Shown here one piece after another: positions 31,563 to 51,171 of a DNA stretch of 64,000 nucleotides. The stretch spans positions 96,001 through 160,000 of the forward strand of contig OZ245015.1 of the NCBI GenBank assembly GCA_965223705.1. Direction: 5' to 3'. Origin of the DNA: Myxococcota bacterium. Lineage in GTDB: Bacteria > Myxococcota_A > UBA9160 > UBA6930. Numbering within the stretch: position 1 is the stretch's first letter; each line of letters begins with the position of its first letter. Below the pieces are notes generated by a model. It was not told the DNA's origin and ran no database searches. It saw only the letters and a list, made by a program, of their open reading frames with translations. Made by a program: the position numbers and the translations under genes.

Positions 31563-31985
31563 TTAGTCCGGAATCTCCGTCGGCAGACCGGCTTTCTGCC
31601 AAGCCGTATAGCCGCCTTCCACGTGCAAGACCTTGGAGACACCCGCTTCGAGAAGTGCGGCTTCACCTTTGCGCGCGCGCGGACCGACTCGGCAGTAGAC
31701 GGCGACACCGTTCGACGCGTCGATCTCGGCGATTCTCTTCCCGACTTCTCGATAGGGAATGTGGACGGCACCCGGGATGTGTCCGGCGGCGAATTCCTCT
31801 TTGCTTCGCACGTCGAGCACCAGCGGTGCGGCGTCGCCTTGGCGAAGTTCGTGGAGCTCTCGGGGGCTCACACTGGGAGCTTCCGGGCCGGCGAAGGCCA
31901 GCGCGGTAAAAAGGCTCACCGCCGCGAGCGCCGCCGCGGCGATCCCGAGCTTTGCTGAAGTGCGCTTTTTCTCTTCCGCTCGCAT
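31563..31985 (-). CDS. Rhodanese-like domain protein with signal peptide
   Basis: LDVRS.EEF..GHIPGA, YCRVGPR, GG..AW. Confidence 0.9.
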   Translation of the reverse strand: MRAEEKKRTSAKLGIAAAALAAVSLFTALAFAGPEAPSVSPRELHELRQGDAAPLVLDVRSKEEFAAGHIPGAVHIPYREVGKRIAEIDASNGVAVYCRVGPRARKGEAALLEAGVSKVLHVEGGYTAWQKAGLPTEIPD

Positions 31986-45904: not shown

Positions 45905-46284
45905 GACGACACCTCCAAAGTCGGACGGGGTAGGGGTTCTCGGTCGGGCAGAACGAATTCGCGGCGCGCGCGCTCCGATGCGATGCGCTCGTCCGAGTAG
46001 TAGAGCAATGCGGTCTCCGGGTTCCGAAGCTCGGGGTGGTGAGACAGGAACGCGGCAAAGTCGTGGGCCCTCGTCGGGTCGCCGAGGCGCGCCGCCACGA
46101 GCCGCGTCCAGACGAGAGTCAGCGTTTCGTGGTAGGCGTGCGGATCGCCGGACGCTCCGCCGCCGTTGATCGACTCGCGGATCGCCGCGCGAATCCGCGG
46201 CGTCGCTCGATGAAGCGGAGCGACCCGAAGGTGCTGAAACGCGATTTCCAACCGTGCTTCGTGATCGAGATGGGGCTTTGCCAT
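45901..46284 (-). CDS. Conserved hypothetical protein
   Basis: YHETLT..W and YYS......AR.EFV.PD motifs; ATGA coupling to the cyclase-STAND gene. Confidence 0.75.
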   Translation of the reverse strand: MAKPHLDHEARLEIAFQHLRVAPLHRATPRIRAAIRESINGGGASGDPHAYHETLTLVWTRLVAARLGDPTRAHDFAAFLSHHPELRNPETALLYYSDERIASERARREFVLPDREPLPRPTLEVSS

Positions 46285-46310
46285 GGGTCGAGCATCGACG
46301 AAGCCGCGGC

Positions 46311-46343
46311 GGCGATCTTTTCCGGATCCTTACCGGATTCTTA
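46311..46343. repeat. Tandem 11-bp-period direct repeats (candidate wHTH operator)
   Basis: GGCGATCTTTT / CCGGATCCTTA / CCGGATTCTTA. Confidence 0.6.
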
Positions 46344-46422
46344 TCATTCCAGCTCTCACGGTTTTTGTAGTAGATTCAAGGGGTTGTGCCTTTGCACGCG
46401 ATCTTCGGAGGGCGCGTTTCCG

Positions 46423-49400
46423 GTGACTTACCGCTTCGGAGACTTCGAGCTCGACGCCGCGAAAGGCGAGCTGCGCAAAGCGGGCCGTCGCGTTGCCCTC
46501 CAGCCGAAGCCCCTCGCGTTGTTGATCCTCCTGGTCGCTGAGCGCCACCGGGTCGTCCCGACGGACGAGCTCCTCGACGCGCTCTGGCCGGGCGAGACCG
46601 TCACGCCGAGCTCTCTGGCCCGGGCGGTGAGCGTCGCGCGCGCCGCGATCGACGACACGGGCCGCGGAGCGCGCCTGCGAAGCTACACCCGCCGCGGTTA
46701 CCGCTTCGTCGACCGCGTGGCGGAATTGCCCGCCGGCAGTGATTCCCCAGACGCCGGGGCCTCCGATGTGGACGCCAGCGGGATCCCGTTGATCGGCCGA
46801 GCGCTGCCACTGGCCACGTTGTCGGCGGCTTGGGATCGCGCCGTGCGCGGACAGGGGGGCGTGGTGCTCATCAGCGGCCGCGCCGGGATCGGAAAGACCC
46901 GCCTCGCGGATTCGTTCGCCCGTCGGGTGGAGCGCGACGAAGGCACGGTGCTGCGGGGGCGCGCGCTCGAAGCGGACGGCGAGCCGCCTTTTTGGGTGTG
47001 GGCGCAGGTCTTGCGGGCGCTTCATCGAGTCGATCCCGAGCGGTTGGAGGAGCCGGGACTGGCCGACAGCGGCGAGCTCGCTGCATTGCTTCCGGAGTTG
47101 CGTCAGAAGACCGCTTCGGTGGCGGCGAACCTTCCCGAGAAGCAGCGCCGCTTCGTGTTTTTTGACGCCGTCGCGCGCACGCTTCAAGCCGCGTCCCAGC
47201 ATCGGCCCGTGCTGGTCGTGTTCGAAGATCTCCACTGGGCGGATCCGGCCTCACTGCGTTTGCTCGAGCACATCGCGTTTGACATCGCTACGAGCTCGCT
47301 GCTCCTCGTCGTGACCGCGCGGGAGGAAGCGGAATCGACGGCAGAAGCGTCCCACGCCCTAGCGGCGCTCCGTCGACAAGACCACTTCGAGAGCGTCGCC
47401 CTGGAAGGCCTGTCCGCCACAGAACTCACCGAGTGGGTGCGACAGTGGACGGGCAAGCCCTCTCAAGACTTGGCGGAGCGCCTCTATGAGCGAACCGGTG
47501 GCGTGCCGCTCTTCGTGCGCGAAGCCGTCCGCAGAATCGATGGGGAACGCGCTCTCTCCGATCCGGGAAATCTCGGCGAGGATTTACCCGCCGTCGAGAT
47601 CGACTGGGTGAAAGAAGCGTTCGCGCAACTCTCGAAGGAGTGCGGCGTGTGTCTCGGAGCGGCCTCGGTCGTCGGGCGAGAGTTTTCCCTTCCGCTCCTT
47701 TCCGATATTTGTGCCACCGCTCGCGGCGATGTGCTCGACGTGCTGGACGAAGCGATCGATCGCGGACTCATCCAAAATGATTCGAGCTCTCCGACCGATT
47801 ACCGGTTCGCGCACGATCTCTTTCGCGAAGCCGCTTACGAAGCGCTGACTCCGGGAGCTCGTGCGCGCTGGCATCAGGGCGTCGCTCTGGTTTTGGAGCG
47901 GCGCCACGCCGGAGAAATCGAACGCGTCGTTTCCGAGCTCGCGTTCCATCGCTACCGCGCGCTCGCACTCGGCGACGCCGAATCTTGTTTCCGTTACGCG
48001 ACTCGGGCGGCGGAGCTCGCGGTCGAGTCGCGTGCCTACGAACAAGCGGTGCGCCACTGGACGTGGGCGCTCGAGGCGTTGGAGCAACTGGAGGAGGGAG
48101 ATCCCAATCGCCGTTTGAGGAGTCTCCTCGGCCTGGGAGACGCCGTGCGTCTGGCAGGTGATCGCGAGAGCCGCCGCGAAATCCTGGGCGAGGCGATGGT
48201 ACTCGCGCGTAAGCTCGATCGGAACGTGGAGTTCGCGACGGCAGCACTCGGCTTGTGTGATTTGACCGAGTGGGCCGTACGCGACGACGTTGCGCGAGAC
48301 GCGCTGCTCGAGGCGGCCGAGCGCATCGATCCTTCCGATACCGAGCTGAAAGCGCGCATTCTCACCCGGCTCGGTTATCTCAACTCGATCTCCAATCGCC
48401 CCGCTGCGGAAGAGCATCTGCGCACCGCGGTCGCCATCGCGCGAGACCTCGGTGCCTCGGACCCTTTGGAAGAAGCGCTCTACGCCCTCCACCTCATGTT
48501 GGGAGGACCCGACGACAAGCCGGAGCGCGTCTCGATTCTCGAAGAGTTGCGCGGTGCGGCGACGGCGGCCCGCGACCCGGTCGCCTCGGTGATCGCGGTG
48601 CTCGATGTCGCGTGCGATTCACTCGAGGTCGGAGACCGCGCGAAAGCCGACGCCCTCCGCCGCGAAGCGGACGAAACCGCGGGGAAACCGGCGCATCCGC
48701 TGACGCTTTGGCATCGCCAGGTCTACGACACGGGTTTGGCGCTCATGGAAGGCCGTTTCTCGGAAGTGAAGGAACGCGCGTCCGTGGCACGAAAGCTCGG
48801 GCAACGAATGCAACATCCCTACGCCCTCGCTTGCTATGCCGGTCAGTTGTCGCAGCTCGGTGTGGAGTGCGGCGCGGCGGATGACGTCCTCGCGCTCCTC
48901 GAGCCGGTTCTCGATCCGCGCGACGGTCCCGGCCACTGGGTCAAGGCGCGGGTCGCTCGGATGCGATTTGCCGTCGGTCGAGAAGAGGAAGCACGCTCAC
49001 TGTTTCGGGACGTGTTCGATGAAGGATTCGAGCAGATTCCGCGCAATCTCCGGTGGATCACGACCATGGTCGAGTTGGTGCACTGCGCGGCAGACCTCGA
49101 AGATGCGGAAGCCGCTCTCGCGCTTCGCGAATTGATCCAGCCCTTCGAGACTCACCACAGCGTGTTGCCCATGGTCATCTGTTACGGAGGTCCGGTCACG
49201 TGGGCACTGGGCAGAATCAGTGAGCTCAACGCAGACCCCGACGAAGCGCTGCGCTACTACCGAGACGCCCTCCGCTCGAGCATCCAACTGAGGGCGCGGC
49301 CCAGCGAGGCGGCGGTACATCTCTCGATCGGGCACCTGCTGAAACGCCGAGGCCCTCCGGCCGAAGCACGCGAGCACCTAGAAATCGGGGGCGCGCTGGC

Positions 49401-49464
49401 TGGTGATCTCGGGATGCGCAGCGTTGCGGCCGCGGCTTCGGACGCCCTTCGCGGGCTCGCCTGA
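46423..49464 (+). CDS. OmpR/CadC-type winged-helix + AAA (STAND) ATPase + TPR transcriptional regulator
   Basis: YRFGDFELD...LQPK...LW...RRGYRF wHTH; GRAGIGKT; FEDLHWAD; GGVPLFV; FAHDL. Confidence 0.92.
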   Translation: MTYRFGDFELDAAKGELRKAGRRVALQPKPLALLILLVAERHRVVPTDELLDALWPGETVTPSSLARAVSVARAAIDDTGRGARLRSYTRRGYRFVDRVAELPAGSDSPDAGASDVDASGIPLIGRALPLATLSAAWDRAVRGQGGVVLISGRAGIGKTRLADSFARRVERDEGTVLRGRALEADGEPPFWVWAQVLRALHRVDPERLEEPGLADSGELAALLPELRQKTASVAANLPEKQRRFVFFDAVARTLQAASQHRPVLVVFEDLHWADPASLRLLEHIAFDIATSSLLLVVTAREEAESTAEASHALAALRRQDHFESVALEGLSATELTEWVRQWTGKPSQDLAERLYERTGGVPLFVREAVRRIDGERALSDPGNLGEDLPAVEIDWVKEAFAQLSKECGVCLGAASVVGREFSLPLLSDICATARGDVLDVLDEAIDRGLIQNDSSSPTDYRFAHDLFREAAYEALTPGARARWHQGVALVLERRHAGEIERVVSELAFHRYRALALGDAESCFRYATRAAELAVESRAYEQAVRHWTWALEALEQLEEGDPNRRLRSLLGLGDAVRLAGDRESRREILGEAMVLARKLDRNVEFATAALGLCDLTEWAVRDDVARDALLEAAERIDPSDTELKARILTRLGYLNSISNRPAAEEHLRTAVAIARDLGASDPLEEALYALHLMLGGPDDKPERVSILEELRGAATAARDPVASVIAVLDVACDSLEVGDRAKADALRREADETAGKPAHPLTLWHRQVYDTGLALMEGRFSEVKERASVARKLGQRMQHPYALACYAGQLSQLGVECGAADDVLALLEPVLDPRDGPGHWVKARVARMRFAVGREEEARSLFRDVFDEGFEQIPRNLRWITTMVELVHCAADLEDAEAALALRELIQPFETHHSVLPMVICYGGPVTWALGRISELNADPDEALRYYRDALRSSIQLRARPSEAAVHLSIGHLLKRRGPPAEAREHLEIGGALAGDLGMRSVAAAASDALRGLA

Positions 49465-49465
49465 C

Positions 49466-50428
49466 ATGGAAGAACTCATCACCCACGCGTTGGAACTGAT
49501 CGCCGCTCACGGCTACTTGATCGTATTCGTGTGGATGTTCGCAGACCAGGTAGCACTACCTCTTCCTTCCGCACCTGTGCTCATCGCGGCGGGCATCGTG
49601 GCGGCGACCGGTGCGCTCGACGTTTTCGCCGTCGTCGTCGTCGCGTCGGCGGCGACACTGCTGGCGGATATTCTCTGGTATCTCCTCGGTCGACGCGGCG
49701 GTGCGCGGGCGGTCGACCTCATCTGCCGCCTGTCTCTCGAGCCCGACAGTTGTGTCACGACGACGCGAAACGCTTTCGGTCGCTTCGGACCGGCGACGCT
49801 GGTGATCGCGAAGTTCATTCCCGGCGTTCAAACCTTGGCCCCTGCGTCGGCCGGATTCGCACGAGCGCCGTGGCCCGGGTTCCTCTTTCTCGACCTCGTG
49901 GGCACGCTCCTATTCGTCACGCCATTCATCGGAGTGGGCTTCTTCTTCCAGGCGCAAATCGCGGAACTCGCGAATCGACTCGCCGCGATTTCCGGAGCCG
50001 CGACCTTGGGTGTCCTCGCGGTCGCTTCGCTCTACCTGGGGATCAAGGTGCTGCGCTGGGTCGTGTTCTTTCGAGGTCACCGGTTGCGGCGCCTTAGCGC
50101 GGAGCAACTGAACGATCGCCTTCAATCGGGTACGGCCACGACAATCATCGATCTACGTCAACGCTTCGACTACGACCTGCTGCCGCGCGTCATTCCCACG
50201 GCGCGGCGAATCCCGATCGACGAAATACCGCACCGACACCACGAGATTCCGCGAGAGCACGACATCATCCTCGTCTGTACCTGACCGAGCGAAGCTTCGA
50301 GCGCTCGGGTAGCGCTCTTCCTTCAGAAACACGGAGTTCGTCGCGTGTTTCCCTTGGCCGGCGGAATGGGCGCCTGGGTCGGGCACGGTTTCCCAACCGA
50401 GCCGGTCGACCGCGAGGGATCGCCTTAG
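49466..50428 (+). CDS. DedA/VTT + rhodanese fusion, predicted selenoprotein (Sec273 at TGA 50282-50284)
   Basis: DedA motifs (PLPS, AKFIPG); rhodanese IIDLR...IILVCT-TGA-PSEASSARVA...PLAGGMGAW continues in frame to TAG 50426-50428; SECIS-like hairpin follows. Confidence 0.88.
50291..50320 (+). promoter_or_regulatory. Bacterial SECIS-like hairpin
   Basis: GAGCGCT-CGGGT-AGCGCTC perfect 7-bp stem (50299-50317); loop starts 21 nt after the TGA and has G at position 2. Confidence 0.75.
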
Positions 50429-51171
50429 CGCTGCGGGGGGACCTGCAGAACGAGGCACACGTACCCGTAGTCGTCTCCGCACGCTTCGTAGGTCTCCCGC
50501 TCGCGCCGTGTGGTGTCGTAGATTTCGAGCTCGCCGTGCTGTCGGATCGCCCTGCGCAGGGGCGCTTCGAGACCGGCGTAGTAAGCGTGCCAGTCGTCGG
50601 CCGGGAGCCGGAACGAGCTCAGCAGGTCGTAGTGCGCGCGCCGGGCATCGTCGATGCGCGTCGCCTCGTCTCGGATGTCGGGGTACTCGTTCGCGAAGAA
50701 GGCGCTCGCGCGCTCGTCGGGATGGGCCACGAACCAGACGAGTTCGGTCAACACCAAGCATCCACCGGGGCGAAGCAGTGGACGCCAAAGCCGCAACGCG
50801 TCCTCGAAGCCAATCGAGTACGCACTGCCCTCGGCCCACAATAAATCGAAGTCGCTGCCGAGCGTGTGAGCTTCGGCCATATCGACGGAAACGGTCGTGA
50901 CGCGATCTAGGAGTCCCCGCTCCGCAGCCTGGGCTCGCAACGTCGCGAGGAACGGCGGGTGGATATCCACCGCCGTGACCTCGGCGCCGGTATCTTCGCA
51001 CAGCACGAGGGTCGAGCCTCCGGTTCCGCAACCCAGGTCGAGTACGCGCTCGATCCGCAGCGACTTGGGCAACAGGTCGAGCGCGCGACGGGTCGTGGCG
51101 GCGCTGCCAGGGGCTTGCCTCGGCGTGTCCTCGAACAACTCGAACAAGCGTGTCAGATCATCGGCTCGCAC
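50425..51171 (-). CDS. Class I SAM-dependent methyltransferase
   Basis: PRQAPGS, VLDLGCGTG, FDLLWAEG, LRPGG. Confidence 0.92.
   Translation of the reverse strand: MRADDLTRLFELFEDTPRQAPGSAATTRRALDLLPKSLRIERVLDLGCGTGGSTLVLCEDTGAEVTAVDIHPPFLATLRAQAAERGLLDRVTTVSVDMAEAHTLGSDFDLLWAEGSAYSIGFEDALRLWRPLLRPGGCLVLTELVWFVAHPDERASAFFANEYPDIRDEATRIDDARRAHYDLLSSFRLPADDWHAYYAGLEAPLRRAIRQHGELEIYDTTRRERETYEACGDDYGYVCLVLQVPPQR

Follow-up and report, generated by a model that had tools for sequence, protein, structure and literature searches.

A DedA-rhodanese fusion gene of a Myxococcota bacterium very probably encodes an inner-membrane selenoprotein with a Cys-x-Sec active-site loop

Can a TGA triplet that closes an open reading frame (ORF) within the active-site loop of a rhodanese domain be the codon for a selenocysteine (Sec) instead of the end of the gene? 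This question is raised by a locus in a stretch of 64,000 nucleotides from a Myxococcota bacterium (assembly GCA_965223705.1, contig OZ245015.1, positions 96,001 to 160,000 of the forward strand), which is named the window in the following and which provides the position numbers unless another contig is given. On the plus strand, a frame of 320 codons runs from ATG 49466 and contains a sole in-frame TGA, codon 273 (50282-50284). The frame reads ...HDIILVCT, TGA, then PSEASSARVALFLQKHGVRRVFPLAGGMGAW..., and is terminated by the TAG at 50426-50428. The ORF list made with translation table 11 closes this frame at 50284, and the portion that is retained by gene callers (49466-50281) corresponds to the window's own called protein P0002, which has 272 amino acids and ends with ...IILVCT. 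The original prediction, made from the letters of this stretch, had described an ORF ending at IILVCT whose frame goes on to a TAG overlapping a convergent stop, and the same coordinates were recovered here: the convergent ORF is located at 50425-51171 on the minus strand and has its TAA on the complement of 50425-50427, so that the stops of both genes overlap. As the N-termini of the homologues read MEE(A/L)L..., ATG 49466 is favoured over the listed GTG 49403 as start codon. Based on the comparison of related sequences, the gene at 49466-50428 very probably encodes a 320-residue inner-membrane selenoprotein, in which UGA 273 is read as Sec. Such an integral-membrane selenoprotein with Sec273 had been proposed before, and it is supported by comparative data on the TGA column, the frame, a hairpin and the presence of selA. 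The UGA would be decoded by SelB and tRNA-Sec, guided by the hairpin 14 nt downstream.

A lone in-frame stop in one assembly looks at first like a nonsense mutation or an assembly error, and the end of the called protein at residue 272 fits to such a fresh pseudogene. We therefore consider how the position of the TGA is occupied in other organisms. In 5.8 billion protein clusters, 823 relatives were detected. Among the best 72 clusters after the window's own, 70 have a length of 268-302 amino acids, one is a Cys form of 310 amino acids and one is a fragment of 225 amino acids; the clusters that carry a name are labelled only as “VTT domain-containing protein” or “membrane protein DedA with SNARE-associated domain”. 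All 31 aligned TGA-type proteins stop at the C-T that directly precedes the TGA of the window. Public protein sets thus carry the 272-amino-acid version, and the suspicion that the protein is misannotated as truncated was correct. Full-length forms of 310-330 amino acids, which share 39-49% identity with the protein of the window, read Y/F-C-[TS]-C-P-[SN]-E-A-[ST]-[SA]-A-R... at this column. On the DNA level, loci from species genomes and metagenomes were compared, with the omission of L046 and L048 (partial), L084 (equal to L033), G591 (cut by a contig end) and G460 (unpublished). Among 76 distinct loci, codon 273 is TGA in 49 and TGY in 27, which is the Cys/TGA pairing that had been named as a check, and the column reads either C-x-C-P-x-E, as foreseen for the homologues, or C-x-U-P-x-E. 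After the TGA, the 49 loci continue with P-[SN]-E-[AVF]-[ST]-[SA]-A-R-[VA]-A..., or a close variant, up to G-G-x-x-x-W. Three divergent paralogues (L036, L106 and L108) have neither TGA nor a Cys codon at this position, and altogether Cys or Sec is present at column 273 in 78 of 81 family members. The TGA is therefore not unique to this assembly. That it is a nonsense mutation or an assembly error is extremely improbable, since the same TGA is found in 49 distinct loci of several phyla and of metagenomes from different sources, and since, as described below, there is purifying selection on the downstream frame, covariation in the hairpin and a selA gene in every genome with the TGA form.

The family has a patchy distribution among the genomes sampled. 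In a soil-type phylum, which was sampled via genome G436, it was found in 53 of 301 genomes, and 36 of the 60 matches contain exactly one TGA (both counts take in the unpublished G460). In the phylum of the window, only 6 of 401 genomes have a family member, of which five belong to a single genus in the order of the window (four with TGA, one with Cys), and the search for the family in the two genomes from the genus of the window (completeness 75-87%) gave no match. G436 itself, an Acidobacteriota genome, has two family members, at G436:C4:296961-297854 and on G436:C12 (L036), one of them with TGA, while in the other, a divergent paralogue, C87, C96 and residue 273 have been lost together.

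If the TGA were a true stop, the gene would encode a DedA protein of 272 amino acids with a rhodanese stump, and the downstream sequence would be a small ORF or an RNA element. In favour of this, TGA is used as an ordinary stop in this genome and in the homologues: the upstream gene ends with TGA 49462-49464, one base before ATG 49466, and in several homologues a second TGA, which lies 42-47 codons past the first, ends the gene. However, the sequence downstream of the TGA behaves like a coding region. In 15 pairwise comparisons with the window, the identity is 0.39-0.72 over the 36 codons past the TGA and 0.30-0.62 over the 60 residues before it, and the nucleotide differences, counted in the frame of the part before the TGA, are concentrated at the third codon positions (156/147/318 in total at positions 1/2/3). 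By this pattern of differences, the frame after the TGA is under purifying selection and translated. Moreover, the Cys forms run uninterrupted through the column, and the 47 codons downstream of the TGA complete the rhodanese domain. The VTT/DedA domain (PF09335) comprises residues 33-158 (49562-49939) with 46.9 bits against a Pfam cut-off of 33.9, and the rhodanese domain (PF00581) comprises residues 211-305 (50096-50380) with 41.9 bits against a cut-off of 22.2. Both are above the cut-off, with the rhodanese domain spanning the TGA, and the assignment of the protein as a DedA/VTT-rhodanese fusion could be confirmed. The order of PF09335 followed by PF00581 in a single polypeptide of about 310-330 amino acids is obtained only when the TGA is read through. 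An AlphaFold2 model that was built on an alignment of 68 rows has a mean predicted local distance difference test (pLDDT) value of 91.8 and a predicted template modelling score of 0.79. In this model the N-terminal 204 residues are helical, including the entire VTT/DedA domain with high pLDDT, followed by an alpha/beta domain, which in the full-length protein forms a single rhodanese fold. All matches listed in a Foldseek search against the PDB (up to rank 48, E < 0.001) are rhodaneses or rhodanese-like proteins, and no solved DedA-like chain is among them. The match to 3tp9_A has an E value of 2.1e-6 and a root-mean-square deviation of 1.6 over 106 columns; others are 3gk5, 5ve3 and YgaP (5hbl). 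A true stop at codon 273 is thus about as improbable as the pseudogene.

A perfect hairpin, GAGCGCT-CGGGT-AGCGCTC, is found at 50299-50317, with its arms at 50299-50305 and 50311-50317 and its loop, CGGGU in the RNA, at 50306-50310. The 7-bp stem begins 14 nt after the TGA, and the loop 21 nt after it, the latter as given in the original prediction. Published criteria for a bacterial selenocysteine insertion sequence (SECIS) are the loop distance and a G in the loop. Perfect 7-bp hairpins with loops of 3-8 nt are not rare across the window, which contains 52 of them against a mean of 38 in shuffled sequence. However, the chance expectation is about 0.017 hairpins per 21-nt start window, with 8 of the 677 TGA triplets on the plus strand being trailed by one, and the hairpin at this TGA is therefore unlikely to be there by chance. 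The comparison between loci is more informative, as the 54 nt from the TGA can be aligned without gaps across all 49 TGA loci. There, 82.8% of the cells of the 7-bp stem are paired. The loop-closing pair is formed in all 49 loci (CG 44, UA 4, UG 1), the fourth stem pair is CG in 40, UA in three and GC in one, and 18 loci have GC and 11 have CG as the outermost pair. None of 500 shuffles matched the TGA loci in pairing, double changes or covariation score, and slid registers were far worse. The compensatory changes are located at synonymous third positions, as in GCT...GTA versus GCC...GTG, or AGT...GCA in L050 and L059. For the Ala in the 3' arm, 48 of the 49 TGA loci use GCG or GCA, although GCC is approximately as common as GCG in the genes, and the loop is CGKGY, likewise in 48 of 49. 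The same columns of the 27 Cys loci are paired to only 61.9%, a value that was reached by 330 of 500 shuffles, and the closing pair is formed in 7 of the 27. Synonymous resampling, with codons drawn from each gene's own usage, gives the same picture: the TGA loci have 5.80 pairs versus 3.94 expected and a minimum free energy (MFE) of -10.9 versus -7.6, whereas the Cys loci have 4.33 pairs versus 3.93 expected. The predicted SECIS-type hairpin is thus conserved with covariation in the TGA loci, with no such signal in the Cys loci, and jointly with the recoding of the UGA it can with high probability be regarded as a bacterial-type SECIS within the coding sequence.

A third alternative is that the UGA is read through without Sec, either by a near-cognate tRNA for Trp, Cys or Arg, or as a reassigned codon. 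The genome of the window (4.56 Mb, two contigs, 95% complete) contains the entire machinery for Sec, which had been named as a check: selA (486 bits), selB (320.7 bits) and selD (269.6 bits) score above their curated cut-offs, and a tRNA-SeC of 99 nt with the anticodon tca is located at C1:2761395-2761493. Besides this, ARAGORN reports a tRNA-like gene of 93 nt with the four-base anticodon “ttca” (tRNA-???) at G000:C1:4419161-4419253 on the minus strand (L123:101-193), which could be a selC-like or an otherwise odd tRNA. A selA gene above the cut-off is present in all 42 other genomes with the TGA form and in that of the window (43/43), but in only 7 of the 23 genomes that have exclusively Cys forms. 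Since these genomes are interrelated, the co-occurrence is to be seen as a consistency check and not as a statistical test. Furthermore, each of the 27 members that retain the motif without a TGA has Cys at this column, the RNA structure is kept in the TGA loci only and at the usual site of a bacterial SECIS, and TGA also terminates genes in the same organisms. Read-through without Sec is accordingly very improbable, even if slightly less so than the two alternatives discussed above.

Some observations pull in the opposite direction and have to be weighed against the reading as a selenoprotein. The fold of 70 nt around the TGA is not extra stable compared to shuffled sequences (z = +0.43), and the MFE structure pairs differently; as the thermodynamics are not significant, the case for the hairpin rests on the comparison between loci. 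An Rfam scan of 49300-50600 with E values up to 1 revealed no family. Synonymous resampling for the window alone is borderline (p = 0.05 for the pairs and 0.07 for the MFE), and in the ungapped register 12 of the 49 TGA loci form only four of the seven pairs, although a bulged stem is possible by eye. Finally, the sampled relatives are not independent of each other, and the Sec and Cys groups had been set before selA was counted.

The Sec and Cys forms do not represent two separate lineages. A maximum-likelihood tree was calculated from 81 distinct proteins, of which 51 have Sec, 27 have Cys and three have neither, with L047 and exact duplicates omitted. Both forms are interleaved on it: at least six changes are required, and strong branch support makes five of them unavoidable. 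Cys clades are placed in between Sec branches, as in the case of L053, which adjoins L051 within one genus. The protein of the window belongs to a fully supported clade of 12 rows, all with Sec, together with two metagenome-assembled genomes of Pseudomonadales and metagenome contigs (54-61% identity), while the forms from the window's own order are placed elsewhere on the tree and share 40-43% identity with it. As the closest relatives are found outside the order, the tree suggests that the gene was acquired horizontally. A signal of foreign DNA was not found by composition, the GC content of the gene being 0.63-0.65 and that of the surroundings 0.60-0.68.

Where exactly is the Sec located within the rhodanese? 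The loop reads LVCTU, with the C-x-U formed by C271, T272 and U273 (TGT ACC TGA, 50276-50284), so that the predicted motif is indeed present within the active-site loop. In the AlphaFold2 model, the loop C271-T-U-P-S-E276 connects strand 266-270 with helix 277-288; C271 stands directly after the central strand, and Sec is the third position of this six-residue loop. On the N-terminal side, D-R-E-I-V-L-Y-C corresponds to the strand plus Cys of solved rhodaneses, and on the C-terminal side Sec273 has the canonical distance from the helix and from a conserved Gly. As both sides match, the segment of loop plus helix has to be two residues longer than in 3tp9, 5ve3 and 3iwh. Judged from these alignments, the extension by two residues compared to solved rhodaneses is new here. 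In HMMER alignments, C271 is aligned with the catalytic Cys of 3tp9 and 5ve3, and U273 with that of 3iwh. The model and two of the three alignments favour C271 over Sec273 as the residue at the canonical catalytic position, Sec being located two residues further into the loop, and in this respect the prediction of a C-x-U active site has to be refined. It agrees with C271 as the nucleophile and Sec as its partner that C271 is kept in 81 of 81 family members, including the three without Cys or Sec at position 273.

The N-terminal DedA/VTT membrane domain would comprise approximately residues 1 to 200. It was aligned with YghB of Escherichia coli (NC_000913.3) and three DedA-only paralogues from related genomes. 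None of these four proteins has a counterpart of the insert C87-x8-C96 (ICRLSLEPDSCV; 49724-49753, with the codons TGC 49724-49726 and TGT 49751-49753), which lies in a basic segment between membrane helices. C87 is present in 80 and C96 in 79 of 81 family members, and of the three paralogues without Cys or Sec at position 273, two also lack C87 and/or C96. The segment holds six Arg/Lys residues and is presumably cytoplasmic. With the positive-inside rule, the basic linker RGHRLRRL after the last membrane helix leads us to infer that the rhodanese domain is cytoplasmic as well.

DedA proteins of COG0586 are proposed to be flippases of undecaprenyl phosphate (UndP), and this subfamily includes rhodanese fusions, for which the link to UndP is called unclear; R130 and R136 of YghB are likely phosphate-binding residues of such flippases (both from PMC10127716). 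The protein could therefore be a DedA-type UndP flippase or scramblase, in which the C-x-U centre only senses or regulates by its redox state. The best NCBIfam matches for the membrane half are indeed UptA models, with 50.3 and 45 bits, and the position of E39 of YghB is D or E in 73 of 81 members. However, these scores are far below the cut-offs of 250 and 300, and the UptA and DedA equivalogs taken together score 45-50 bits against cut-offs of 236-300. The equivalent of R136 (position 122) is never Arg in 81 members (S 33, Q 17, N 17, A 6, G 5, D 3), that of R130 (position 116) is Lys in 78 and Arg in three, and at the position of D51, which is hydrophobic or small, the acidic residue is not retained. 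E39 and D51 are likewise essential residues of YghB, and the family does not keep the complete set of E39, D51, R130 and R136 that is expected for an UndP flippase of this type. According to the alignment, the invariant C87/C96 pair and the position of R136 that is never Arg are new here. The genome has two further genes with a VTT domain, which marks the DedA-rhodanese gene as an accessory paralogue and means that the other two could fill the general role. The invariant set of four Cys/Sec residues points to chemistry and not to sensing alone. A flippase role is thus unlikely, and less likely than a role in chalcogen chemistry.

For the latter we can offer a tentative proposal, which we consider possible rather than probable: the protein may be a membrane-bound chalcogen transferase or reductase that is coupled to a DedA-type conduit. 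The pair C271/Sec273 would then cycle via a selenenylsulfide or carry a sulfane or selenium atom, and the C-x-U centre, possibly relayed through C87/C96, would process sulfur or selenium species that are conducted by the DedA-like domain, with thiosulfate, selenite, polysulfide or similar compounds as candidate substrates. By analogy, such a function would resemble pairs of a transporter and a sulfur carrier as well as the membrane rhodanese YgaP. A more far-reaching version appears quite improbable to us, namely that the DedA-rhodanese is a self-contained machine for chalcogen uptake and activation. In that case a proton-driven DedA conduit would bring selenite (or thiosulfate) to a cytoplasmic relay of C87, C96, C271 and Sec273, which would reduce the substrate or pass it on, and the repeated switches from Sec to Cys would track the loss of the Sec trait. 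The best explanation as a whole, in which UGA 273 is read as Sec in this DedA-rhodanese fusion, is in our view highly probable.

The functional part of this explanation also meets counter-evidence. The best NCBIfam match, NF041203 (“rhodanese_LYCAU, rhodanese-related (seleno)protein”), covers residues 204-313 against positions 17-125 of the 126 of the profile, but the score of 63.5 bits (59 in the six-frame search) is below the cut-off of 115, so that the protein does not belong to this family as defined there. In NCBIfam release 20.0, with which this check was run, no model is passed by the DedA-rhodanese protein. The sequence alone is ambiguous with regard to the canonical residue, since the HMMER alignments vote two to one for C271 versus U273. 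Clustering of the 476 ORFs with 100 or more amino acids in the 1.5-kb flanks of 50 loci revealed no family-wide neighbour; the largest neighbour clusters have five members each, all from near-identical contigs. The gene neighbourhoods hence give no support for a coupling of Se/S oxyanion transport to chalcogen transfer, as it had been suggested. In the window, the neighbours are a regulator with Trans_reg_C, AAA_16 and TPR domains, a class-I methyltransferase, PhyH and GNAT, and as they are not conserved elsewhere, we set them aside for the question of function. The regulator-like ORF (46036-49464, plus strand) is not paired with the selenoprotein gene in other genomes. Its stop lies one base before ATG 49466, which makes a co-transcription possible, and both genes may therefore form one transcript. 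The convergent gene at 50425-51171 on the minus strand encodes a class-I S-adenosylmethionine-dependent methyltransferase, which has a marginal match to TehB, named as a tellurite-resistance methyltransferase family (21.6 bits against 20.4), and stronger matches to generic methyltransferases.

Besides the DedA-rhodanese gene, the genome contains other rhodanese genes, none of which is a member of NF041203 above the cut-off in a six-frame search. A second candidate for a CxU rhodanese selenoprotein is located at G000:C1:1887499-1887795 on the minus strand (L119:799-1809, minus strand). It is an ORF of 337 amino acids with one in-frame TGA, reading ...IVAYCL-U-SGESSSSRV..., and has an N-terminal rhodanese domain (39.2 bits in Pfam) followed by approximately 200 residues without a Pfam match at E values up to 0.001. 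The same layout, with the TGA and a similar hairpin, recurs in G040 (L016) and G033 (L017). An identity of the C-terminal part as a class III cyclase was considered on the basis of a motif and rejected, as Pfam reports only the rhodanese domain at this threshold. Another rhodanese ORF, at about 31575-31922 on the minus strand of the window (G000:C1:127575-127922), is an open frame of 147 amino acids without an internal stop; it scores 33.1 bits with NF041203, which is below the cut-off.

With this protein, the bacterial selenoproteome would gain an integral-membrane member with two domains, which is common in the samples analysed (36 of 60 matches in the one soil-type phylum). The TGA form is systematically cut in public protein sets, with approximately 70 of the best 72 clusters ending at the TGA, and the annotation could be restored by a single model that covers both domains, DedA and rhodanese, and accepts U in the C-x-U motif. 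Moreover, the Sec gives the so far unexplained DedA-rhodanese fusions a testable chemical handle, and the four invariant Cys/Sec residues together with the loss of the UndP-binding arginine argue for a role of this DedA branch other than the flipping of lipid carriers. A link between a DedA protein and the uptake of selenite has been described (a secondary statement in PMC11422209; Ledgham 2005 is the corresponding entry in the reference list of PMC10127716), and the gene described here would connect a DedA protein with selenium biology by a new route. A description of a Sec-containing DedA-rhodanese was not found in the literature, with subscription-only papers and supplements being outside the scope of this search. 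Selenocysteine is not mentioned for DedA-rhodanese fusions in the relevant passages of PMC12893004 and PMC10127716, and a 2026 review has no mention of DedA, VTT, PF09335, SNARE or TVP38.

Nevertheless, the Sec DedA-rhodanese combines two known kinds of protein, the CxU rhodanese selenoprotein and the DedA-rhodanese fusion. PMC13188914 lists the CxU rhodanese selenoproteins under the name “form 3” (NF041203), and PMC9312934 under “COG0607 form 2”. Form 3 likewise carries Cys-x-Sec within the active-site loop of a rhodanese, but its model describes a stand-alone domain of 126 positions, whereas here the rhodanese forms the C-terminal third of a membrane protein of 320 amino acids. DedA-rhodanese fusions, on the other hand, are known as Cys proteins from PMC12893004 (PA1209) and PMC10127716 (COG0586 fusions). 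PA1209 of Pseudomonas aeruginosa, with PF09335 plus PF00581 and 311 amino acids, is catalogued as such a fusion in the former. Fusions of the PA1209 type share the two-domain architecture, the length and the C-x-C-P-x-E loop at the same column, and the Cys forms of Pseudomonadales also have C87 and C96 (L086: ...VCKVSLSPDSCI...); they differ by Cys in place of Sec and have 32-33% identity to the protein of the window. YghB/UptA of E. coli resembles the membrane half in a VTT/DedA domain above the Pfam cut-off, in re-entrant-loop motifs that can be aligned and in the acidic residue at E39. In contrast, the identity to YghB is only 25%, R136 is never Arg, R130 is mostly Lys and D51 is lost, the NCBIfam scores for UptA and PRK10847 are far below the cut-offs, and the family described here adds the C-x8-C insert as well as the fused rhodanese. 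YgaP of E. coli (5hbl, 5hbo) is, like the predicted selenoprotein, a rhodanese tethered to the inner membrane and is a structural match with an E value of 4e-4 in Foldseek. However, YgaP begins with the rhodanese domain, followed by two membrane helices, lacks both Sec and a DedA domain and has only one catalytic Cys.

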